Of a DNA stretch of 64,000 nucleotides, positions 10,171 through 45,898 are shown piece by piece. The stretch is from contig OY776510.1 of assembly GCA_963675665.1 (NCBI GenBank), positions 448,001 through 512,000 of the forward strand, written 5' to 3'. The DNA comes from Spirochaetia bacterium (GTDB lineage: Bacteria; Spirochaetota; Spirochaetia; UBA9216). Within the stretch, counting starts at the first letter, position 1. Every line of letters starts with the position of its first letter. The position numbers were made by a program, and so were the translations under genes. The notes beneath the pieces were generated by a model, which was not told where the DNA came from, did no database searches, and saw only the letters and a program-made list of their open reading frames with translations.

Positions 10171-10629
10171 TTTGAACTTTTTGCCGCTGCCGCAGGGACA
10201 AGGTTCGTTGCGGCCGATCTTCGGCGTTTCCCGCACTACGGTAGCCGACGGCGTATAACCGTCGCTGAAATACCAGAAACCGTTCTTTTTTACGAAACTG
10301 CTTATTTCATGATGATCGTATTCTGTTCCATCCTGGCTGAATTTTGCAGTAAATTCTACCTCGCCTTCATCACCCGAACTTTCTGCGCGTTTTATCTCAA
10401 GCCCCAGCCAGTCCGATTCCGCCGCCCATTTTTCAGTAGCTTTGCGATCGAGCCTGTTGAGTCTTGCAGGATCATGCGTATCAACGATGAAATCTATTTC
10501 CTGCATAACATATGCGGTATACCGCGCGCGCATCAGCGCTTCGGGTCCGGAGGCGTTCTTTTTACCGCTGATATACGGTTCGCAGCAAGCTGTATATGAT
10601 TTTCCGCTTCCGCAGGGACAATTACTCAT
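10153..10629 (-). CDS. ychJ: YchJ family protein with N- and C-terminal SEC-C motifs
   Basis: [49 protein letters not shown]. Confidence 0.92.
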
Positions 10630-10762
10630 TTTTCACTCCTGAAAATAATCTTAAATTATCGGTTTTATCCCTAAAATTCAAGCTTTCCCCTTAAAAACAG
10701 GAAGATTACACAAATTCATAAACATTTTCTTGACTTATAACACCTATAGTACTATAGTTATA

Positions 10763-14348: not shown

Positions 14349-15581
14349 ATGACTTTGAAAATAGCTAAAACAGCCTATAAAAACATTTCCAGAAACAAGC
14401 GCCGTTCTATTCTTTCCGGGGCTGCAATCAGTATTGCAGCAATGAGCATAGTAATGTTTTTCGCATTGATTGGCGGGATGTCGCAGGATATGGAAAACAA
14501 CCTCGGTGCCTATTATTCAGGAGATGTTAATATAAGGAACACTGACTATGAAAAATATGAGCGGTTTAATCCTGTTCATCTGACTGTAAATATCGACGAG
14601 ACCGAAGCTGTGCTGAAACAGACAGAAGGGATTGACGAATGGGTATACCGAACAAATTTTCCCGCAAATATGTATATAAACGGCACCAATCACGGCGCCC
14701 TCGGCGTAGGAGTTGATTTCGCAAGGGAAGCCGGTTATATCGATCTTGGTTCTATCCTGAAAAAAGGAAAAATTCCTGAAACGGGAAAAAACGAGATGCT
14801 CATTGGAGCAGTTCTGGCAAACAACCTTCATCTTGATGTGGGCGACAAGGTAACTATTATTTCAATGACCGCCAGCCGCGGCTCAAACGCAATTACGCTT
14901 AAAATTGCGGGAATCGCAGCTTTTCCGGTCGCCGCCCTTAATGCCGGATACTTCTGGATGCCGATTGACCGTGTGCAGCACTTTCTGCAGATACCCGGAG
15001 CCACACAGCAGATCCTCATAAAAACCGCCGACGGATATAAACGCAAAAACATAGCGAACGAGATTGACGAAGCGCTTATTGCCGCCGGAATACCGGCTGA
15101 TGTTAACGAGATGGAGGATATGAGTATGATGTTTATATTCCTCCGACTTGCCGATATGGTTTACAACGTAATTGCCGTTTTCTTCTTTGTTCTGGGAAGC
15201 ACAGTAATCATAAATACCACAATGATGGTCATATTTGAAAGGATGCGGGAAATAGGCACACTGTCGGCGCTCGGCATGCACGGAAAGGAGCTGACGCGCC
15301 TCTTTCTTCTGGAAGGGACTTTTATAAGCGCGGCGGGCGCGGCAATAGGTGTTGTGGTCGGGGTAATTATCACCCTTTACCTGTCAAAAACCGGCATTGA
15401 TTTTACCGACGCCATGCAGGGAATTGAAATGGAAATATCTTCAGTACTGTATCCGGTTCTGAGTGTACCGAGGACCATTTTCGTATTTTTCTATTCGGTT
15501 ATCATCTCAAGTCTTGCAACCCTGATACCCTCGAAAAAAGCGTCACGTATTGAACCGGTTGAAGCGCTCAGATACATATAA
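14349..15581 (+). CDS. FtsX/LolE-like ABC permease
   Basis: AYKNISRNKRRS, INTTMMVIFERMREIGTLSALG, RIEPVEALR; AGGAGG before ATG 14349. Confidence 0.9.
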   Translation: MTLKIAKTAYKNISRNKRRSILSGAAISIAAMSIVMFFALIGGMSQDMENNLGAYYSGDVNIRNTDYEKYERFNPVHLTVNIDETEAVLKQTEGIDEWVYRTNFPANMYINGTNHGALGVGVDFAREAGYIDLGSILKKGKIPETGKNEMLIGAVLANNLHLDVGDKVTIISMTASRGSNAITLKIAGIAAFPVAALNAGYFWMPIDRVQHFLQIPGATQQILIKTADGYKRKNIANEIDEALIAAGIPADVNEMEDMSMMFIFLRLADMVYNVIAVFFFVLGSTVIINTTMMVIFERMREIGTLSALGMHGKELTRLFLLEGTFISAAGAAIGVVVGVIITLYLSKTGIDFTDAMQGIEMEISSVLYPVLSVPRTIFVFFYSVIISSLATLIPSKKASRIEPVEALRYI

Positions 15582-15708
15582 TACTGAAATGACATCCATG
15601 ACATTTCAGTATATTGAAGTATGAAATTAATAAGCTGAGAGACAGGCTTGTCATACTTCATCAATAAAATCTGCCATACCTGCGGCGCTGCTTCGCAGTC
15701 TATGGCAG
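15581..15708. other. Three consecutive intercistronic stem-loops
   Basis: IRs 15581-15612, 15615-15660, 15671-15708 (last contains GCTTCGC). Confidence 0.65.
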
Positions 15709-20774: not shown

Positions 20775-22109
20775 TTAATACAGACCGTATTCTTTAATTT
20801 TATTGAACAGGGTTTTACGATCAATACCCAGTTCTTCAGCAGCTTTTATCTTTTTACCTTCCCATCGTGCAAGACTTTCCCGAATCATCTCTTTTTCCAT
20901 GTCCCTCAAGGTTCCGCGGCTTTTTAAAGTATGATGATTTGAAGATGGTTGTTCCAAACCGGAACCGAGAGAAAAATCAGCGGACTGCAGTTCATTTCTT
21001 TCCGACAAAATAAAGGCCCGTTCAATCAGGTTCTCCAATTCACGAATATTTCCCGGAAAGCGATACGCCTTCAGCATGTCCATAGCATCGGAAGAAATCC
21101 CGCTGATTGCCCTTCCCATACGATTATTCATTACGGAGATAAATGTACCGCATAACAGCGGCATGTCTTCAGATCTTTCCCTGAGCGGAGGAAGATGAAT
21201 CCTTACAACATTCAGTCTGTAAAACAGGTCTTCCCGGAATTTTCCAGTCTTTACGTCTTCTTCTATGGGTCTGTTGGTAGCGGCAATTATCCTTACGTCG
21301 AGTTTGATCTGTTTAACCGAACCGAGCCGCTGAACCGAACGCTCCTGTATGGCCCTGAGAAGCTTTACCTGAAGATGAACCGGCATATCGCCGATTTCAT
21401 CCAGAAAAATCGTTCCGCCGGAGGCCGCCTCAAAAAGTCCTGTTTTCATTCTCTCAGCCCCTGTAAAAGCCCCTTTTTCATGCCCGAAAAGTTCACTTTC
21501 AAGAAGGGTTTCAGGAATACTGCCGACATTTACCGGAACAAACGGGCTGTCGGCTCTTTCCGACCTGCCGTGGATAAACCGTGCAAAGACCTCTTTTCCC
21601 GTCCCGCTTTCCCCGGTTATCAGGACATTGGATTGCGTCGGTGCTGCCTTTTCCGCCAGAGTTATTATTCTGTTCATTTCCGAATTGTTACTTTCAAGTT
21701 TAAACCCTCTGCCGCTGAGGTTCCGCAACCGAAAAACTTCCTGCTGAAGCCGTTTTTTTTCACCGGCCTTTATTATCTTTAATTTTAGCTCTTCTGTTTC
21801 AAATGGCTTTGTAAGATAATCTTCTGCACCCAGTTTCATGGCTTCAACTGCATCAGCTACATCACCGTAGGCTGAAATCATTATAACCGGGAGTTTAAGA
21901 TCTTCCTTTTCAAGCCGACGGAGAACTTCCAGCCCGTCCGCTCCCGGCATTTTGAGATCCATAACAAGAACATCAAAAACTTCTTCTGAAAGCAGCCTTA
22001 GTGCCGACAAACCGTTTTCGGCCGTTCTGACCTCGAATCCGTCAATCGTCAGATACTCAACTATTGATTCCCTTATTCCTTTTTCATCATCAGCTATGAG
22101 TACTCTCAT
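20775..22109 (-). CDS. Sigma-54-dependent response regulator (NtrC/ZraR/AtoC type)
   Basis: REC domain; GESGTGKE, ESELFGHEKGAFTGA, Fis-type HTH. Confidence 0.95.
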   Translation of the reverse strand: MRVLIADDEKGIRESIVEYLTIDGFEVRTAENGLSALRLLSEEVFDVLVMDLKMPGADGLEVLRRLEKEDLKLPVIMISAYGDVADAVEAMKLGAEDYLTKPFETEELKLKIIKAGEKKRLQQEVFRLRNLSGRGFKLESNNSEMNRIITLAEKAAPTQSNVLITGESGTGKEVFARFIHGRSERADSPFVPVNVGSIPETLLESELFGHEKGAFTGAERMKTGLFEAASGGTIFLDEIGDMPVHLQVKLLRAIQERSVQRLGSVKQIKLDVRIIAATNRPIEEDVKTGKFREDLFYRLNVVRIHLPPLRERSEDMPLLCGTFISVMNNRMGRAISGISSDAMDMLKAYRFPGNIRELENLIERAFILSERNELQSADFSLGSGLEQPSSNHHTLKSRGTLRDMEKEMIRESLARWEGKKIKAAEELGIDRKTLFNKIKEYGLY

Positions 22110-23380
22110 GTTTCTCTCCGGAAGAAAAGCTCCGCTTCCGCCCCGCCTTCTTTCCTGTTGTTTATTTTTACCGAACCGCCTGCAGCCTCCGTTAAACGCT
22201 TTACAACCGACAGCCCCAAACCCGTACCGCTGTTTTTGGTTGTGAAAAAAGGATCAAACATTCTCCTCAGGGCTTCCTCTGTAAATCCTGCACCGTTATC
22301 CGTCACCGAAAGCAGTATTCCGCGGCTCACTTCTGTAACCGCGATCCCGGCAGCGCCTGCGCTTTCTACGGCATTATTCACAATGTTATCGAGTACGGTT
22401 CGTAATCTTTCCCTGTCGAAATAAATACAAGCCGCAGAATCAGGAATGCTGAATACTATTTCATTACGGCTGCCGTATAATTCAGTAACAAAGCGGCCAA
22501 GATCAATTTTCTCCGGTTTACCAACCGGGTTTCGCAGAAATTCCCCAACCCTGTCGACCAGCAGATTAAGCCTTTTAAGTTCACGATCAATAATATCCAG
22601 ATTTGTTTCGTAACCCGGCGGAAGCTTCTTTACAAGAAGATCACGCTGTATTTTTAATGCACCCAGGGGATTTCTAATCTCATGGGCAAGAGTTCTGGCC
22701 GCCTCGCCAAGCTGAATAAGCTGTCTGTCATGCTCCGTTTTCTCTATCAGCCGTCTGTTGGATCGGTATAAACGAAACAAAAAGAATGCAGCAACAGAAA
22801 AAAGCGTGATAAAAAGAATAATCAGAAGAATAATCAACCGTCGTTCAGAAATATAACCGCTGTTAAGATATTCAATATAGATTCCCACCTGATATTTTCG
22901 AAGCATCGGCGCCAACGGCTGTCGCTGATCCCTGTCATCCCTGAGTTCCTGCAGCCTCCGCTGCATATTGGGCGGCATTCTCTGCATCATTGACTCAGCT
23001 CCGCGTAAAACGGCAGCATCATCCGGCAGTGTTCTTATAACAACTATACTGCGACGACCGGCCATAATCACTTCGTTATTGCGGCCCGCTGCATCAGGCA
23101 GCCGCAAGGGTGCACTCCCGTATCTTTTCAGAGAATTATTATCTGCTCCGTATATTCCGAAACCTGTTATATTTTCATCTATTTGAGAAGGGTCGTTCAG
23201 CTGATCATTTACCTGAAGATCAAGAAGCAGGTCAATAAGCCGGGAGGCCTTGTATTCCAGCATCAGTGCATTATTTGACTGTTTCTGGTCTATAAGCATT
23301 ACAAGAAGAATTATAAAAATAATAAAAACAGCTGAAACCGGAAGCAAAATCACTCCCGGCTTCATTTTAATTGGTTTCAT
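22106..23380 (-). CDS. Membrane sensor histidine kinase
   Basis: Two TM helices; LAHEIRNPL, NIVNNAVE, DNGAGF, FDPFFTTK..GTGLGL. Confidence 0.95.
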   Translation of the reverse strand: MKPIKMKPGVILLPVSAVFIIFIILLVMLIDQKQSNNALMLEYKASRLIDLLLDLQVNDQLNDPSQIDENITGFGIYGADNNSLKRYGSAPLRLPDAAGRNNEVIMAGRRSIVVIRTLPDDAAVLRGAESMMQRMPPNMQRRLQELRDDRDQRQPLAPMLRKYQVGIYIEYLNSGYISERRLIILLIILFITLFSVAAFFLFRLYRSNRRLIEKTEHDRQLIQLGEAARTLAHEIRNPLGALKIQRDLLVKKLPPGYETNLDIIDRELKRLNLLVDRVGEFLRNPVGKPEKIDLGRFVTELYGSRNEIVFSIPDSAACIYFDRERLRTVLDNIVNNAVESAGAAGIAVTEVSRGILLSVTDNGAGFTEEALRRMFDPFFTTKNSGTGLGLSVVKRLTEAAGGSVKINNRKEGGAEAELFFRRET

Positions 23381-23427
23381 TCTTTGTTTAAGATACTATA
23401 AACCTGTAATTATTGCCATTAAGAACT

Positions 23428-24000
23428 CTAAAAAGGTCTCTGCCTGCCGTCCGCTTTTCCACCATACATTCGGTTGTCGTCCCGGCTGCTCATTCCGCCC
23501 CGACCGAACATTCCGTCTTTATCGGCCATTCTTCCGAATCCGGTTTCGTTATCCACCCACGGCAGCTGATATGTGGTACCGTCAATTTCTACAGATTCCA
23601 CAAGCAGCTCTATATTTCCTTCAAGCGCCTCAAGATCGAACATCCTTCCCCGCCCCCCGGGCCCTGCCGCAGGTCCGGCATTCCATGGCATGGTCTCTTC
23701 ATCAACAATATAACCTTTAACTGTGATTTTATCTCCTTCGCTGACATAATCATAAAAAGCCATTGCTCCGGGGGCAATCAGAGTATAACTCTTACCGCCG
23801 GCAACCAGTTCCGGAACGGGAGATTCAAACTTTACCGTACCGGTTACCTCTGCCTGCTCAAGGTCTTCAAGATAACTGTTTCTTGCAAGCTCCCTGGGCT
23901 GCAGTTTAACCACACCGTCTTCATCTGCTTCCTGCGCGCCTGTCGCAAATACTGTCGCAGCAGCTGCAGACATGCATAAAATTAAAAATATTTTCTTCAT
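23428..24000 (-). CDS. Exported accessory protein with Gly/Met/Arg-rich tail
   Basis: Spirochaete-type signal (VFATGAQE); AGGAG SD; upstream of kinase-regulator pair. Confidence 0.7.
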   Translation of the reverse strand: MKKIFLILCMSAAAATVFATGAQEADEDGVVKLQPRELARNSYLEDLEQAEVTGTVKFESPVPELVAGGKSYTLIAPGAMAFYDYVSEGDKITVKGYIVDEETMPWNAGPAAGPGGRGRMFDLEALEGNIELLVESVEIDGTTYQLPWVDNETGFGRMADKDGMFGRGGMSSRDDNRMYGGKADGRQRPF

Positions 24001-24062
24001 TTTTTGCTCCTATAAAAAGTCAACCACAAGCTAAAAATATAAGCTTATGATCTGGTCGGATA

Positions 24063-25175
24063 TCAACCGACCATTACAGCTTCCCATGCTGCTGCCTGCA
24101 TTTCCCTGTATTCTTTTCTAAAAGCCATTTTCATCGGATCAAACGGCTCTCTGGTTTTTAAAATTGTATATACCAAAGTGCTCATCTTGCGGGCGGCAGC
24201 TATTACACTCTTACCCGAGCCTTTCTGCTTCTTCATCGCTGCATACTTCGTCATTATTCGGTACGTCCCGGTCTTCTTTTGCATACGAACCATTCCCATC
24301 ACCATCTGTACGAAGGCTGTCCTCAGTTCTACAGGCCCACGCTTTGTTATATGTCCATGATGTATTGTCATATTTGAGTTCTGCACCCATGGCACAAGCC
24401 CGGCGTTTGCTGCATATTTCTTCGCACTATCATATCTGCCGATATCGTCTGTATAGGCTCTTACTGTTGCTGCTGTTATTAGACCCACGCCTGGTATTGT
24501 CTGCAGAAGCTCAACATCTTCATCGTCCTCCACAAGCTCAGCCAAAACCTTTTCAAGCTGCTTGACTTGCGATGCCTGATTATCTATCATATCCAGTAAC
24601 GGTATTACCGTTTTGGCAGCGCTTCCGTAAAAGTCGTGGTCCTCGAGACCGTTCAGGATTCGCTGCCTTTCTTTTTTACTCTGCAGCTGTCCGCGTTTGG
24701 TCTCTATTCCATAACCAAGTAATAAGCCATGCACCTGGTTCTTTAACGACACAACAGATTTTACCAGTATCGACCTGGATTTCAGCACCCTTCGAATATC
24801 CTCACTCTCTTGGGAACATAATATCGATTCAGGCAGCATGTCTTTCTCAAGAAACTCCGCCAGGGTGCGTGCATCATGTTTGTCTGTCTTTTTTACAGAT
24901 TCATTCACTACCTTGAATTTCAAAGTATTCACTACAACCACTTCGACTCCAGCCTTTAACAGTTTATTGCGGAAATAACGGGCATTCCCGGTTGTTTCCA
25001 CCGCTGCTCTCAACTCATATTCCTCTTCACAATATTCATCCAGCATTTTCAGAAATGCTCCATAACCATTTCCGCTGGTCGGATACATTCCCAATTGATC
25101 AATTTTTCGGTCTTCACTTAAAAGGCATACTGTAAACTGCGTTTTGTGAAGATCCACGCCAATACTCATCTTCAT
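24063..25175 (-). CDS. IS110-family DEDD recombinase/transposase
   Basis: IGVDLHK, AVETTGN, KKTDKHDA (DEDD), LQTIPGVG, GLVPWVQNS (catalytic Ser region), GHITKRGP. Confidence 0.96.
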   Translation of the reverse strand: MKMSIGVDLHKTQFTVCLLSEDRKIDQLGMYPTSGNGYGAFLKMLDEYCEEEYELRAAVETTGNARYFRNKLLKAGVEVVVVNTLKFKVVNESVKKTDKHDARTLAEFLEKDMLPESILCSQESEDIRRVLKSRSILVKSVVSLKNQVHGLLLGYGIETKRGQLQSKKERQRILNGLEDHDFYGSAAKTVIPLLDMIDNQASQVKQLEKVLAELVEDDEDVELLQTIPGVGLITAATVRAYTDDIGRYDSAKKYAANAGLVPWVQNSNMTIHHGHITKRGPVELRTAFVQMVMGMVRMQKKTGTYRIMTKYAAMKKQKGSGKSVIAAARKMSTLVYTILKTREPFDPMKMAFRKEYREMQAAAWEAVMVG

Positions 25176-25204
25176 GTTCTATCTCCAATAGTTTGAAGCA
25201 GTGC

Positions 25205-25370
25205 CTATACGGTGAATTGTTCCATTCTCCTATCCGGTCTCGCAGACCATTGAATGTTTCGGTTACGGCTCTTCAATCTCCTAAACGGTCTCGCGGACCA
25301 GTAAAAATGTCGAACAGTAACCTTACTGCCTCAATTAAAGTTAAGGCAGTATATCAATTCACCAGCTCAT
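25205..25370 (-). ncRNA. Predicted IS110 bridge/seek RNA
   Basis: Closing stem GGTGAATTG/CAATTCACC, 5' hairpin 25324-25351, two loops sharing a GGTC(C/T)GCGAGACC hairpin, flanked by segments matching the target and donor junctions. Confidence 0.82.
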
Positions 25371-25413
25371 GAAGACTTTTTATCATTCCTCCTAAAAAGT
25401 TGTTACTTTTATA

Positions 25414-25431
25414 AAGCAATATGCATACCAA
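25414..25431 (-). promoter_or_regulatory. Sigma-54 (-24/-12) promoter
   Basis: TTGGTATGCATATTGCTT = GG-N10-GC; predicted start ~25404, just before the SD at 25393. Confidence 0.8.
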
Positions 25432-25508
25432 AAAAATATTGAAAAAGAGGATTTATTGGGTATTTTTTAGAGATTTAACAGTGAATTTAAGGATTTCAAA
25501 ATGCCTCC

Positions 25509-25553
25509 CGGGGCAATTTTCCCCATCATAGAATTCAGAGGATTTTTGCCCCG
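25509..25553. promoter_or_regulatory. Paired upstream activator boxes for a sigma-54 activator
   Basis: CGGGGCAATTTTCCCC and GAGGATTTTTGCCCCG, ~110-140 bp upstream of the predicted start. Confidence 0.6.
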
Positions 25554-25599
25554 AAGATTGCAGAACCCGTGCTTAAAAAGCAACAGGCCCGGTGCAGGT

Positions 25600-26043
25600 T
25601 TAAATTACTGATTCAGATTCAACGGTATCCGGTGAAGATGAATATGCAAGCTCTTCATCAGTAATCTCATCAGCTTCTGTATCACCGCCGTTTTCGGTTC
25701 TGAAATCTTCCTTACCGAATGTCGGCCTTTTCTCAATATACTCTGCTACGAGTTTTAACCTTGATCTCGGATTTCCTTCCCTGTCTTCCCAGCGGTCCTG
25801 TTTTAATCTTCCTACTATACGGACTCCCTTGCCTTTGGAGAAATTGTTCTCACTGTAGGTTGCAAGCCTCGTCCATGCTTCAATATCCAGAAACGTCACT
25901 TCTTTCTGGTATTCATCATCCTGTTTATAATAACGGTTTGATGCCACGGTAAAGTTACAAACCTTCGTACCTTTAGGCGTTTCACTTAGAATCGGATCTC
26001 TGACAAGATTTCCTTCAATTATTACTGAGTTAACAGAATTCAT
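25600..26043 (-). CDS. ssb: Single-stranded DNA-binding protein
   Basis: NSVIIEGNLVRDP, FTVASNR, KGKGVRIVGRLKQDRW; acidic tail. Confidence 0.92.
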   Translation of the reverse strand: MNSVNSVIIEGNLVRDPILSETPKGTKVCNFTVASNRYYKQDDEYQKEVTFLDIEAWTRLATYSENNFSKGKGVRIVGRLKQDRWEDREGNPRSRLKLVAEYIEKRPTFGKEDFRTENGGDTEADEITDEELAYSSSPDTVESESVI

Positions 26044-27406: not shown

Positions 27407-30400
27407 TTACAAACTCAGCCTTGAAAGGTCCTTGGGAATATCCTGATATATCTGCAGCCGGTAATCTTCGACCGGATAAAATACCGCCCGTGAATTCAAA
27501 TATGAAAGATTAACCGTATCCGGCTCTACAAGCGAGTTCGGATCACGGGAAAGTTTATCGTAATATTCAACCGAATCGGTAAGAAGCACCATTGCTTCCG
27601 CATTTTTTTCCGGTTCACGGCTTCTCTCATACAGACGGTATTTGGTAACTCCCAGGTTATTGCTTACCTTCATCATATTCTCAAGCAGGGCCCGATGCTC
27701 CGGAATCTCATCAATAAGCAGGTAATTAATTGACGAATATTCTTTACTGAGCAAATCAAGAAGATGTGTATAGTATCCCTCAGCAAGATAATAATCGTTT
27801 CGGTTGAACAGAGTATTGGCTGTTGAGTACATCAAAGCCCTGTCTACGGAAAACCCGCCGGCTGTATCATAAAACTCGATCAAAGCCTCTCTATAATTCT
27901 TGTTATAATACTGTATATAACCTTTTTTGTATTTCAATATCTCGGAAGAATATTCATTCAGTTCGGCTTTGGTATAATACTCAAGCGCCAGGTCATAATC
28001 TCCGCTGATATAATACGATAAATCTCCCAGGTTGGAAAAAATCATGCCGAATTCAGGTTTCGGCTGTATCTGCCTGTTGGCTATTGCTTCATCATACCGT
28101 TCGGCCGCTTTCTGATAAAACTCTTCGGCATCCAGATAATTCTCCTGTTCATACAGGATCATCCCTTTACGGTTATACGAATCGATCAGTAAACCGTTTC
28201 GGGTGCGGGTCAGCGGGTCTGTATTTTCAAAAAGCCAGATTGCTGCATTAAGCGCTTTCTCTTCCTCTTCCGGAATGTTGATAATACCAAAATAACGGGC
28301 AAGTTCATAATGTATTTCCGGAAGTTCCGCCTCTACAGAACGTGCTTTCATCAGGATCTCTCTTACATCCTCAAAACGGCCGCTGTCAATCAGATATCCT
28401 GCCAGTTCGGCATAAATGTCCGGCTCAATATCCGCTTTCGCATTCTGTTTAAAAGCATCATAAAGATTCATTGCTTCAGTATGGTTATCTGTTCTGATAA
28501 AATACCGCAACATTCTGAACAGAATCTCATCTCTGCCGCCGTACAGTTCAAGCAGCTTGGCATAATTAAATCTTGCCTCTTCATATCGTGATGGATCAAT
28601 TTCCCTTGCCCATTCCATATAGGTATCACCGAGCATCAGACGGGCTTCATAATCATTAAGGTGATCAAAAAGTAAATCAGTTAAAAGCTTTTCAGCTTCC
28701 GGATACTTGCCTAGAATCTTAAATTCCAGTTCGGCATAATCCAGCACAGCCTCGCGTTCATCCGGGTACCAGCCGAGCAGCTGCTCGTATTTTTCTTCGG
28801 CAAGAAGATATTGTTTATTATCTTCAAATGATTCTGCATATCTGTAAAACCAGTTTTTCTTTTTCCATTCACTGAATGCACGTTCGAAATATGAGTTGGC
28901 CTGTTCGTTGTTTCCCTGCGGAATTTCTTCATAGCCTTTTTTATATAGCGATTCAGCGTGCAGAGGGGTATATACAAACCGATACCCTAAAAACAATAAT
29001 AGCATCAGGGAAGCCGCTGCTATCAATGCTGTTCTGAACATCGGTATAAAGTTTTTTCTGAACATATAGCTGAAGGAACTCTTTTCTTTCTCGAATTCCT
29101 CAGCGGTGCGCTTTTCATACTGCGCCGGGATTTTTACCTTCTTTCCGGTTATTTTCGATACGACATTCCCAATTTCTCTTGCGCTGGAACCGGAAGTCAT
29201 CGCCTCAATGAGTTTATCCAGATTTTCACCGGTAAGCCGCTTTTCTCCTATCAGCTCCTCAATTATGAGCTTGAGATTCCGAGGCATTTGACCAAGAGTC
29301 TTTTTAAGTTCTATAAACTCATCATCGGGAATGGCGTAACTTTCATCGGAATACGCATCGTCAAAATCACCGCTTTCATCCGCAGAAGGAACATCAAGAC
29401 TTTCAAGATGCCCCATGTCTTCAGCAGGTTCTTCATCTACTCCGAATTCCTGCCCCAGATCTCCGAGACTGAACTCTGAAGCTTCAATATCATCGCCGTC
29501 TATCTCTCCTAGACTGAAATCTTCAAGACTGAATTCATCCTCTCCGGAGTCATCGGAACTTTCCATATCGGAGCCGAAGTCGCCGACCTCGGATTCACCG
29601 AGTTCATCCATGTCGGTGTCGAAGCCGGCCGTGTCGAGCTCACCGGCATCAGGTTCGCCCAGGTCATCCATGTCGGCGTCGAATTCGCCGGTGTCGAAGT
29701 CAGCCGTGTCCAGCTCTCCGAGGTCATCCATGTCGGTGTCGAAACCGGCCGTGTCGAGTTCACCGGCATCAGGTTCGCTCAGATCATCCATGTCGGCTTC
29801 GAATTCGCCGGTATCGAAGTCAGCCGTGTCCAGCTCTCCGAGGTCATCCATGTCTGTGTCGAAGCCGGTCGTGTCTATCTCACCGGCATCAGGTTCGCCC
29901 AGGTCATCCATATCGGCGTCGAATTCGCCGGTGTCGAAGTCAGCCGTGTCCAGCTCTCCGAGGTCATCCATGTCGGTGTCGAAGCCGGTCGTGTCGAGCT
30001 CACCGGCATCAGGTTCGCCCAGGTCATCCATGTCGGCTTCGAATTCGCCGGTATCGAAGTCGGCCGTGTCCAGCTCTCCGAGGTCATCCATGTCTGTGTC
30101 GAAACCGGCCGTGTCGAGTTCACCGGCATCAGGTTCGCCCAGGTCATCCATGTCGGCGTCGAATTCGCCGGTATCGAAGTCAGCCGTGTCGAGTTCATCA
30201 GCATCAGGTTCGCCCAGGTCATCCATGTCGACGTCAAAATCGCCGGTATCGAAGCCGGTCGTGTCTATCTCACCGGCATCAGGTTCGCCCAGGTCATCCA
30301 TGTCGGCTTCGAATTCGCCGGTATCGAAGCCGGTCGTGTCGAGTTCATCGGCATCAGTAATCTCTTCACCAGAACTTTCAAGATCAAACGAATCAAGATC

Positions 30401-30754
30401 CGCATCGAAACCTTCCGCTTCCAGGGCATCCATCTCTTCGAATTGATCCCCGGAAGAGGATTCTTCTGCAAGCTCTTCGTCGAGCCCCGAAAGTAATTCT
30501 TCAGGAAGATTATAATCGCCCTCAAATTCATCCGGTTCAGCTTCTGAATCTGTCGGCTCCTCGGCAAAAAGGGATGATTCTTCCAGAACATCTGTATCAT
30601 CCTCATCGAAAAGCGCACTCAAATCTCCGATCGATTCAGCTTCAGGCGGAGTAATATCCGGCATAACTTCACCGCGCTGTCTGCGTATCTCCTCTTCGTT
30701 GCCGAGACGAGTCAGATCTGTCTTAAAATCGTCTATTTCTTGAATCTGGGGCAT
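27407..30754 (-). CDS. flcA: FlcA-like periplasmic flagellar collar protein (acidic N-region, TM helix, TPR domain)
   Basis: Acidic low-complexity N-terminus, PRNLK..IEE motif, single TM, long TPR-like region; architecture recalled for spirochaete FlcA. Confidence 0.72.
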   Translation of the reverse strand: MPQIQEIDDFKTDLTRLGNEEEIRRQRGEVMPDITPPEAESIGDLSALFDEDDTDVLEESSLFAEEPTDSEAEPDEFEGDYNLPEELLSGLDEELAEESSSGDQFEEMDALEAEGFDADLDSFDLESSGEEITDADELDTTGFDTGEFEADMDDLGEPDAGEIDTTGFDTGDFDVDMDDLGEPDADELDTADFDTGEFDADMDDLGEPDAGELDTAGFDTDMDDLGELDTADFDTGEFEADMDDLGEPDAGELDTTGFDTDMDDLGELDTADFDTGEFDADMDDLGEPDAGEIDTTGFDTDMDDLGELDTADFDTGEFEADMDDLSEPDAGELDTAGFDTDMDDLGELDTADFDTGEFDADMDDLGEPDAGELDTAGFDTDMDELGESEVGDFGSDMESSDDSGEDEFSLEDFSLGEIDGDDIEASEFSLGDLGQEFGVDEEPAEDMGHLESLDVPSADESGDFDDAYSDESYAIPDDEFIELKKTLGQMPRNLKLIIEELIGEKRLTGENLDKLIEAMTSGSSAREIGNVVSKITGKKVKIPAQYEKRTAEEFEKEKSSFSYMFRKNFIPMFRTALIAAASLMLLLFLGYRFVYTPLHAESLYKKGYEEIPQGNNEQANSYFERAFSEWKKKNWFYRYAESFEDNKQYLLAEEKYEQLLGWYPDEREAVLDYAELEFKILGKYPEAEKLLTDLLFDHLNDYEARLMLGDTYMEWAREIDPSRYEEARFNYAKLLELYGGRDEILFRMLRYFIRTDNHTEAMNLYDAFKQNAKADIEPDIYAELAGYLIDSGRFEDVREILMKARSVEAELPEIHYELARYFGIINIPEEEEKALNAAIWLFENTDPLTRTRNGLLIDSYNRKGMILYEQENYLDAEEFYQKAAERYDEAIANRQIQPKPEFGMIFSNLGDLSYYISGDYDLALEYYTKAELNEYSSEILKYKKGYIQYYNKNYREALIEFYDTAGGFSVDRALMYSTANTLFNRNDYYLAEGYYTHLLDLLSKEYSSINYLLIDEIPEHRALLENMMKVSNNLGVTKYRLYERSREPEKNAEAMVLLTDSVEYYDKLSRDPNSLVEPDTVNLSYLNSRAVFYPVEDYRLQIYQDIPKDLSRLSL
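29604..30350. repeat. Coding tandem repeat: five 120-bp (40-aa) units plus 75-bp variants
   Basis: CACCGGCATCAGGTTCGC recurs at 29641, 29761, 29881, 30001, 30121; encodes DMDDLGEPDAGELDTAGFDT-DMDDLGELDTADFDTGEFEA. Confidence 0.95.
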
Positions 30755-44644: not shown

Positions 44645-45748
44645 TACATGAATCCTTACAATTGAACCGGTAGCAAAAACTGCAACGCAAACAATAAATA
44701 ATACAGCCTCCCTGAAAAACGGTTTAATCATAATATAAAATTTGACAATCAAAGCGGAGACAACGGTGACTCCGAAGGAGATGAGCAATACCGTTCCCGT
44801 TGATAAACATCCGTGGGGAATCAGCAATCGCATCCATCCTATTATCATCCAGTGAATAACATAAAAAGACGTCAGGTATTTCCCCAAGAATGAAAGAAAC
44901 CCTGTTTTCAATTTTGCCGGAAAGATTCTGTCGATAAAACCGATTAGAAAACTCCATACAAGTACAAACCCTCCGATAGCAAAAAGTCCGGCTGCTTTCA
45001 TCTGCCCGTAATCATTAAAAAAGCGATCAAAATCCTTAACAAGGGGAACTATTGCGACTGTTATTGCAGCACATCCGGTTGTAAATAAAAACAGATAGTA
45101 ACGCTTTGAGATTATATTCAATAATTTTCCAAACACCATACCCTGCAGGGGGAAAAACAGCCAGGGAAACAACGGAAAGGTGACCAGGTCATGATCATTG
45201 CCCCAGAGAGGCTCAATTATTCTTCCCAATACCGGAATTCCCTCGCCGCGGCCCCACAGAAACGGAGAGAAAAAGGCAATAACGCATGCAATCAATTCCC
45301 ATATCCACAATTTCCGTGAAAACCGGGAAATCAGACTCATGCATATGAATGCAAGTCCCGCAAAGATCAGGATATCAACCGTAAGAAAAAGATATTCATA
45401 GGTATACATCGGCGAGAAATGATCTGCCGGCAGCTGCAAAAATTCTTTGCCGATAAAGACAGGAACTACGCCCCTGAAAAAATTTAAAAGATATCCGATA
45501 AACAGCAGCTGAATGCCCCTTTTAATATTTCCCGGCAGATCCATGAAATCTTTCCGGGCAAAAAGAAATCCCATGATAACCATAAAAACAGGAGCCGCCG
45601 GCGGTCCGCCAAGGAAATCAATCAGAACTCTTGAGGTTTCTCTCGGACCGTCGAAATCGGCAAAAACATTCATCACATGGACCATCACCATAAAAACGAC
45701 AGCCAGCCCCCGCAGGACATCAAGAATCCCGAACCGTTGTTTATTCAT
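44609..45748 (-). CDS. Membrane acyltransferase-like protein (HGSNAT/DUF1624-type)
   Basis: RF..LDVLRGLAV..MVMVH, AAPVFM, FPLFPW. Confidence 0.8.
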   Translation of the reverse strand: MNKQRFGILDVLRGLAVVFMVMVHVMNVFADFDGPRETSRVLIDFLGGPPAAPVFMVIMGFLFARKDFMDLPGNIKRGIQLLFIGYLLNFFRGVVPVFIGKEFLQLPADHFSPMYTYEYLFLTVDILIFAGLAFICMSLISRFSRKLWIWELIACVIAFFSPFLWGRGEGIPVLGRIIEPLWGNDHDLVTFPLFPWLFFPLQGMVFGKLLNIISKRYYLFLFTTGCAAITVAIVPLVKDFDRFFNDYGQMKAAGLFAIGGFVLVWSFLIGFIDRIFPAKLKTGFLSFLGKYLTSFYVIHWMIIGWMRLLIPHGCLSTGTVLLISFGVTVVSALIVKFYIMIKPFFREAVLFIVCVAVFATGSIVRIHVLRRNLFVKFDE

Positions 45749-45898
45749 TTTTCACTCCTGCAGGCATTATCAGGGAATGAAATAATCATATAAATGGGAA
45801 ATTAGTACCGGACAACCGGGATTTTGTATGGGAAAAAAGTACCGGTCTTCCTTCTTCAGACCGGTCGGTCAATACCGCCGCCTACAGCGCCTGAAAAT

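Follow-up and report, generated by a model that had tools for sequence, protein, structure and literature searches.

An IS110-Family Element of a Spirochaetia Bacterium Whose Predicted Bridge RNA Appears to Read Translation-Initiation Regions

Results

The Element and Its Recombinase

The window (the whole stretch of 64,000 nucleotides that was analysed) contains a complete IS110-family insertion sequence on the minus strand (24009..25390). It is inserted at AGG^AG and is 1,382 bp long, as measured by excision. It encodes a recombinase of 370 aa (24063..25175, minus strand) which matches PF01548 and PF02371 and scored 216.8 bits against NF033542 (cut-off 140). The protein consists of an N-terminal DEDD RuvC-like domain and a C-terminal Tnp domain, the combination that defines the IS110 family in the broad sense. 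The residues D8, E60, D98, D101, and S267 were invariant in 18 homologues, and in an alignment to IS621 and ISCro4, S267 fell in the serine loop of IS621 as the equivalent of S241. Residues 267-268 read SN in 18 of 18 aligned homologues; IS110/IS1111 proteins have been described with SG or TG at the catalytic loop (PMC11187229). The 370-aa length and the motif GL-P----SN can be compared with 330-350 aa and GL-P----S/TG in the IS1111 clade.

The recombinase scored about 58 bits to ISEc11-family proteins and to IS621 proteins alike, the two values coming from two different programs. A tree of 105 proteins (FastTree) placed the retargeted members described below inside the group that targets ribosome-binding sites (RBS), with RBS guides nested again among them and with mixed backbone support. 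A 77%-identical element was seen on a plasmid of the cultured Thiospirochaeta perfilievii (L169, NZ_CP035808.1), at an RBS before a short unannotated ORF. T. perfilievii is a possible experimental host for the element.

The source genome holds 15 copies, which differ by at most one base (SNP), and the spread was therefore recent. The left end (25374..25390, minus strand) begins with seven terminal nucleotides, followed by a subterminal inverted repeat (25374-25383), and the right end (24009..24023, minus strand) carries the partner repeat (24012-24021) and finishes in an AGG that rebuilds the RBS. The repeat is perfect over 10 bp and lies 7 nt from the left terminus and 3 nt from the right one, which is the rule for subterminal inverted repeats of IS1111 elements (PMC11187229). 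The non-coding parts amount to 215 nt upstream of the recombinase gene and about 55 nt downstream. The crossover AGG^AG was set by homologues whose junctions depart from AGGAG either on the left, in the first two letters, or on the right, in the fourth (L055, L026, L072, and L130). On the opposite strand, this point lies 3' of a CT core, and the IS621 cut site is likewise 3' of the CT core (PMC11208158).

When the two ends are joined, a putative -35 box TTGACT in the right end (24018-24023, minus strand) and a putative extended -10 box in the left end (25377-25382, minus strand) come to lie in the arrangement TTGACT-17 nt-TAAAAA with a TG extension. The joined ends of a circular form would thus plausibly make a sigma-70-like circle-junction promoter. 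No circle or empty-site joint was found in the contigs of four runs (at most three samples of one study), and contigs lose rare forms. The left end also opens a 10-codon ORF (25383-25351, minus strand), which starts 2 nt past the left AGGAG and is probably too near to it to be translated. In one homologue (L029), a short duplication of the right end stands ahead of the host spacer and ATG, which suggests that a rebuilt site was used again.

Host Context of the Copy in the Window

The host half of the original Shine-Dalgarno sequence (25391..25393, minus strand) was left upstream of the element, and a rebuilt RBS with a 6-nt spacer and the ATG of the downstream gene (23998..24011, minus strand) was found on the other side. 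The downstream gene (23428..24000, minus strand) is intact and encodes 190 aa without a Pfam or NCBIfam family. It is followed by a histidine kinase and then a sigma-54 activator, and the kinase was adjacent at 6/6 orthologous loci. In these six relatives, the region before the gene (90 nt viewed) had a single AGGAG and no element. Together with the junction variants, which agree on one crossover, this shows that insertion took place without target duplication.

A putative sigma-54-type -24/-12 promoter motif of the host gene (25416..25430, minus strand) now stands some 25 nt in front of the element. The same type of motif stood 49-52 nt before the ATG at 6/6 orthologous empty sites, where the chance expectation is about 0.001 per 90 nt. 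The insertion sequence separates this motif from the set of the 190-aa gene, kinase, and activator (20775-24000). Since the copy sits between the sigma-54 promoter and the gene, host transcription would read into the element. A scan for sigma-70 promoters and terminators over 23900-25700 returned no terminator-like site and five promoter-like sites against 3.5 expected, the junction promoter being invisible to such a scan. Excision of IS621 requires read-through (PMC13626964), and if the same holds here, co-oriented landing in leaders would supply both the RNA and the protein. Elsewhere in the window (27407-30754), a protein of 1,115 aa was noticed in which TPR-like helical repeats come after a long, acidic region of tandem repeats.

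Insertion Sites in the Genome

The original prediction held that the element homes to translation-initiation regions and that its other copies would share this kind of site. A flank survey of all copies bore this out, with 15/15 at AGGAG-N5-7-ATG. Every copy has AGGAG at both junctions, followed by an ATG in the same direction as the recombinase, and the spacer between the two was 6 nt in 12 copies, 5 nt in two, and 7 nt in one. The downstream ORFs (93-729 aa) were intact at 15/15 copies. At the level of sequence, it therefore holds, as proposed, that the RBS is rebuilt and the coding sequence spared. Among the other copies, 13/14 downstream ORFs matched Pfam, including phosphoglucose isomerase, a PLP decarboxylase, a transketolase-type subunit, and a disulphide oxidoreductase. 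On the upstream side, 6/15 copies were at most 18 nt from a co-oriented ORF.

The background was estimated in the genome freed of the element, with coding regions approximated as ATG-led ORFs of at least 150 aa. An ATG followed at 5-7 nt after 840 of 6,564 AGGAG sites, and after 78 of the 175 [AT]TAGGAG sites outside long ORFs; relative to the latter, 15/15 gives a P of 5.4e-6. The base 5' of AGGAG was T in 13 of the insertions and C in none, while T precedes 135 of the 840 available sites. Two bases before AGGAG, 10/15 sites had A where the guide has T. Sites with A at this position are also more available (69 vs 39 with T), and some of them are rebuilt sites. Among likely starts after TAGGAG in the genome, the spacer peaked at 6 nt (57/128). 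Part of the insertion spacing is therefore explained by availability.

Two parts of the original prediction did not survive this comparison. The start regions at 10627-10640 and 45746-45759, which had been named as similar to the target, are ordinary start regions; each has C before AGGAG, a base seen at 0/15 insertions, and is thus a poor target for the guide. Furthermore, the idea of one idealised target of 16 nt whose register is fixed was not supported: TTAGGAG-N-AAAAATG fits one site in the IS-free genome, and the real spacers vary.

The Predicted Bridge RNA

The coordinates and motifs that had been proposed for the non-coding left end were all found in the sequence. The predicted bridge/seek RNA (25211..25363, minus strand) comprises a closing stem of 9 bp (25211-25219/25355-25363), a 5' hairpin (25324-25351), a target-loop arm, and donor guides in a multiloop, with twin GGTC(C/T)GCGAGACC hairpins at 25287-25299 and 25236-25248. 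Loop 1 is flanked by CATTTTTACT (25309-25300) and TTTAGGAG (25285-25278). The RNA folded at -57.5 kcal/mol with a z score of -3.68, which was equalled by 2/200 shuffles. In an alignment of homologous leaders, the consensus likewise had the closing stem and 5' hairpin, together with a long target arm and a multiloop that holds a donor hairpin. Over 22 chosen leaders, changes on both sides were seen in 15/30 pairs and 94.5% of the cells were paired, in a test whose structure came from that very alignment; 0/500 shuffles equalled the observed scores, and controls slid along the alignment paired at 21-46%. No Rfam model matched the RNA up to an E value of 1.

Four guides were read in this RNA, all on the minus strand. 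Target guide 1 (25300..25309), which consists of CAT and spacer bases, complements the ATG start codon and the bases immediately 5' of it; the guide's last 3 nt resemble the donor-loop linker. Target guide 2 (25278..25284) is the 7-nt TTAGGAG and corresponds to the Shine-Dalgarno sequence with two bases upstream. Donor guide 1 (25252..25256, CATTC) complements 5 nt past the core in the left end, and donor guide 2 (25227..25233, ATAGGAG) corresponds to the right end plus the core.

For 7/8 left-end variants, a perfectly complementary variant of donor guide 1 was found, and the 14 distinct pairs comprised seven perfect ones, two with wobble only, and five with one mismatch. Donor guide 2 is near-invariant in both the RNA and the right end, so that a covariation test does not apply to it. 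Bridge/seek RNAs are characterised by a structured, non-coding end in which target and donor guides are distinct and covary with the DNA. The left end has these features, and we infer that the segment 25211-25363 would be expressed as such an RNA.

Guides and Flanks Across Homologues

A total of 175 loci was assembled from 80 + 80 retrieved loci and the 15 own copies. After 17 distant loci had been set aside, 158 were parsed. Target loops were obtained for 127 of these (28 were unparsed and three were dropped as mis-registered or damaged), giving a comparison set of 107 distinct left flanks and 59 guide variants. As had been proposed, guides covaried with flanks across the homologues. On the RBS side, the guide matched the flank at 101/107 for the first base, 87/107 for the second, and 102/107 for the three bases up to the cut. 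The family-averaged identity at three positions was 0.85-0.95, compared with 0.33-0.69 after permutation (0/2000 permutations), and the match dropped when the guide was slid by one base. Because of the kinship among these loci and the guide common to repeated copies, the permutation counts overstate independence; even so, the slid controls and the retargeted clade agree in direction. Single genomes showed the same behaviour: the base 5' of AGGAG was T at 13/15 sites in the source genome, C at 9/10 sites in an Oceanispirochaeta MAG, and A at 9/9 sites in a Syntrophales MAG, in each case as in the guide. The eighth RBS-side base matched at 35/107 sites (0.18 vs 0.23 permuted). The RBS-side guide is therefore 7 nt long, and the 8/8 match of the original prediction has to be shortened by one base.

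On the start-codon side, ATG was found at 91/95 distinct right flanks of CAT guides and at 2/8 of non-CAT guides. CAT is nearly invariant among the RBS-targeting members. GTG or TTG stood at 2/95 sites of CAT guides vs 77/513 in the genome (P 4e-5). The spacer to the first ATG was 6 nt in 51 cases, 5 in 14, 7 in 13, 8 in six, 9 in four, 4 in two, and 3 in one. Anchored on the ATG, the two guide bases next to CAT covaried modestly (10 and 32 of 2000 permutations), and the next four were not significant. C before the ATG occurred at 12/38 sites of guides with G and at 2/40 sites of guides with T (Fisher p 0.003).

The register of this arm differs from the one first proposed. The 7/8 match that had been claimed for it stands if the guide is anchored on the ATG and is lost in fixed register, where the guide encodes a 5-nt spacer and the site has 6 nt. 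The target loop is thus offset by one base, as is the donor loop, but the two offsets run in opposite directions. A fixed register of the IS621 type, in which the left target guide adjoins the core directly, did not hold either: spacers run over 4-9 nt with a mode of 6, whereas 5 nt are encoded, and retargeted guides had their best fit at offsets of 4-10. The reading that the guide holds the core CT in register was also rejected; the C is present in 47/127 parsed target loops.

In one subclade, both target guides were changed while the donor loop was unchanged, and the insertions lay in short repeats rather than start regions. Of the retargeted guides, 9/13 fitted their own right flank at 5/7 or more, compared with 10% in a control, at offsets of 4-10, and 4/13 fitted poorly. 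The naturally retargeted left ends are L124, L127, L129, L133, L136, L137, L140-L142, L148-L150, L153, L154, L156, L157, L159, and L164; 20 loci carry this label, among them L165, which keeps an RBS guide. At these loci, the same RNA scaffold has been naturally redirected to short tandem repeats of CAC[AG]GAG-like and TAGGGA-like sequence. A homologue from a Leptospira MAG (L055) has a different target loop, a compensated donor guide, and no ATG downstream. In the distant clade (32-40% identical, mostly Lentisphaeria MAGs; L061-L072 and L075-L079), the element stood before an ATG at 14/15 sites. Its left end is longer, and most of its guides start with AAT instead of CAT.

Gene-Less Three-Hairpin Modules

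Five of the 15 copies lie directly behind modules of 100-160 bp with three hairpins. A profile search of the source genome (G000) returned 69 module-like stretches. In the window, a degenerate module (15578..15705, plus strand; nhmmer E 2.3e-5) ends just before an RBS and ATG and is without the IS left end. Seventeen modules open with the exact IS left end, preceded by AGG in 12, TGG in three, GGG in one, and AGA in one, and 17/17 of these finish in an IS-like right end followed by ATG (12) or by another left end (5). Some modules form tandem arrays (loci L170-L184, listed with the module family). Copies at different loci were up to 93-97% identical, with a median of 84%.

The pattern was found in 3/3 same-genus genomes and in 0/2 other genomes searched. 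Ten same-genus module loci were considered, and the four that could be compared in G000 were empty in two cases, held a decayed copy in one and a partial copy in one. The end-bearing modules thus have both ends of the autonomous element, the same target, and presence or absence at orthologous sites, which together define an IS110-dependent MITE. A search for empty sites through the downstream gene of one module gave paralogues only, and the recombinase was not found with the present query in three same-genus drafts that hold modules. We lean towards the view that the end-bearing modules are mobilised in trans by this recombinase clade, for which MITEPpu9 of ISPpu9 is a precedent as a gene-less module borne by an IS110 element (PMC12288879).

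The module family matches the antisense strand of Rfam TD-2 (RF03162), a motif whose function was left open in 2007 (PMC1950547). In G000, 18/31 hits were above the gathering threshold, 150 of 681 candidates having been scored. Another genome (G043) gave 54 TD-2 hits; the IS left end occurred in 0/12 of those viewed, and PF02371 had no match in that genome. On these grounds, the view that all of TD-2 represents a MITE of the element was rejected. The sole IS110 protein of a further genome (G004) was 23% identical and had different ends. TD-1 had no match in G000, in a search run without a positive control.

Discussion

Proposed Mechanism and Rival Explanations

At the level of sequence, the data support well an IS110-family element that is active, has ends of the IS1111 type, and carries a predicted RNA whose target loop very probably reads translation-initiation regions. 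The 7-nt guide would pair with the strand opposite (A/T)(A/T)AGGAG and the other guide with the start codon plus the one or two bases 5' of it, and the target arm would tolerate a spacer of about 5-9 nt, with 6 nt being best. The donor loop would read the junction formed by the two ends in the circle, and this junction may also act as the sigma-70-like promoter. The recombinase is expected to exchange strands at AGG^AG without duplication, with a strand chemistry drawn by analogy from IS621. With TATAGG as the last bases of the right end, insertion would give the downstream gene its RBS back, and this gene may continue to be expressed. The rebuilt RBS is itself a target, so elements could stack. 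Co-oriented landing in a 5' leader would place RNA and recombinase under host transcription by read-through.

The main rival holds that the AGGAG-side guide alone, with an AT-rich preference, picks the site, and that the link to ATG reflects the loss of in-gene insertions and the enrichment of AGGAG at starts. AT-rich AGGAG is indeed already enriched for ATG (43/105 TT[AT]TAGGAG sites), the covariation of the spacer is weak, and natural RBS spacing peaks at the same 6 nt. We nevertheless regard this explanation as improbable, since outside long ORFs an ATG follows at 5-7 nt in only 35-45% of such sites vs 15/15. The preference for ATG over GTG and TTG is not what selection would produce, and the base before the ATG tracks the guide, as the counts for G and T guides given above show. 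Moreover, CAT is retained in the RBS-targeting members and is altered jointly with the other guide in the retargeted ones.

It is very unlikely that the element in truth targets REP-like or TD-2-like intergenic hairpin repeats which end by chance in an RBS, in the manner of REP-targeting IS110 elements. The five copies directly behind modules would fit such a target, but 10/15 had no module by that search and the six copies close to an upstream ORF have no space for one. The copy in the window has no module, the six orthologous sites had none in the 90 nt viewed, and the guides spell an RBS and ATG, not hairpins. Even less credible is the proposal that the AGGAG and CAT of the target loop are remnants of a duplicated donor loop, and that the donor loop or the protein picks donor-like sites. 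The hairpin, AGGAG, and CAT are common to both loops, and the A two bases before AGGAG at 10/15 sites is of the donor type, yet the donor guides remain the same where target guides and flanks co-vary over 59 variants, including cases of complete retargeting in which the donor loop is unchanged.

Beyond target reading by the two guides, a bolder reading can be offered tentatively. The bridge recombinase clade may recognise RBS and start at variable distance (4-9 nt) by sliding or looping of the DNA beside the core, use host promoters through 5' leaders, regenerate its own target, and serve as an engine that installs TD-2-type hairpin cassettes before dozens of genes. Such RNA-guided rewriting of leaders would partly explain a motif that has been unexplained since 2007.

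Relation to Known Systems

It is established that RNA guides IS110/IS1111 elements to their targets (PMC11208160, PMC11187229). With IS621 and ISCro4, the element shares an RNA in the left end and target and donor guides around twin hairpins (PMC11208160, PMC11208158), as well as the DEDD residues and catalytic serine, a CT core on the cut strand, and, putatively, a junction promoter (PMC11208160, PMC11208158, PMC13626964). Unlike in those systems, the element is inverted relative to its target, has long subterminal repeats, and carries the donor guides in a multiloop; its target arm is apparently not contiguous with the core as it is in IS621, and the protein similarity to IS621 and ISCro4 is low (E 5.6e-15). 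IS621 itself targets REP sequences.

The IS1111 group (ISEc11, ISKpn4, and ISPa11) has the same 7/3-nt subterminal repeats and a junction promoter comparable to the putative one here, and in its guide order, the top-strand complement stands 5' of the bottom-strand match (PMC11187229). This order is also seen here, where the CAT guide precedes the AGGAG guide. Differences from this group are the repeat of 10 bp instead of 11-13, the protein of 370 aa instead of 330-350, and SN instead of SG/TG (PMC11187229); identity to an ISEc11-family protein is about 23%. In addition, the RNA lies upstream of the gene, whereas in IS1111 elements the non-coding region is long and downstream, with upstream cases such as ISMtsp17 being rare, and none of the targets in the excerpted descriptions of the group is a translation start (PMC11187229). 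By its sequence features, the element would work like IS621 with the ends and guide order of IS1111 and an RNA position unlike IS1111.

The habit of inserting at translation starts, which the original prediction implied to be new, is older. Doran et al. reportedly placed IS900 at translation-initiation signals in 1997, judging by the title. The motif of IS900, an IS110-family element of Mycobacterium avium subsp. paratuberculosis, is CATGNNNNNNTCTCCTT, the reverse complement of an RBS and ATG and hence an equal signal (PMC8141618). IS900 further resembles the present element in that genes are seldom disrupted (three IS900 cases) and the target is not duplicated (PMC8141618). In contrast to the IS1111-like subterminal repeats here, the published description of IS900 gives it no terminal inverted repeats, and its hed ORF gains the host RBS on the strand opposite the transposase, whereas the recombinase here is co-oriented in 15/15 copies (PMC8141618). 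The excerpts of that paper contain no guide RNA analysis for IS900. RBS and ATG targeting is thus known from IS900; in the present element, the guide can be read and changes with its targets.

No bridge-RNA account of RBS targeting was found in the literature, in a search that was thin on subscription journals, and the excerpts of 10.1101/2025.10.25.684509 and PMC12892987 hold nothing on it. A set of 32,190 predicted bridge RNAs has been reported (bioRxiv 10.64898/2026.10.21.760802), which may include the clade of this element.

Like the modules described above, MITEPpu9 is gene-less and tandemly repeated, with flanking IS110 ends and an invariant AG; it differs in having REP/BIME targets, in encoding an sRNA, and in that its circles were shown, the present modules being known from sequence (PMC12288879). 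The modules resemble TD-2 in matching it on the antisense strand and differ in that only a subset bears IS ends; a link between TD-2 and IS110 was likewise not found in the same thin coverage of subscription journals. Small gene-less hairpin elements seem to have used the guide as well.

Significance

The pairing of guides with RBS and start codon would provide a base-pairing explanation for the old observation of IS110 elements at translation-initiation signals. It would add a third safe-harbour strategy to the use of repeats and of other mobile elements, in which a signal common to all genes is hit and then rebuilt. The 59 natural guide variants, including switches to repeat targets, amount to a ready-made reprogramming table, and a guide arm that tolerates variable spacing, if true, would represent a novel mode of recognition and give bridge editing an off-target rule. 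Furthermore, the small modules suggest that some orphan "RNA motifs" of leaders are passengers of such elements, and insertion behind host promoters offers a testable link to the read-through-driven excision of IS621.
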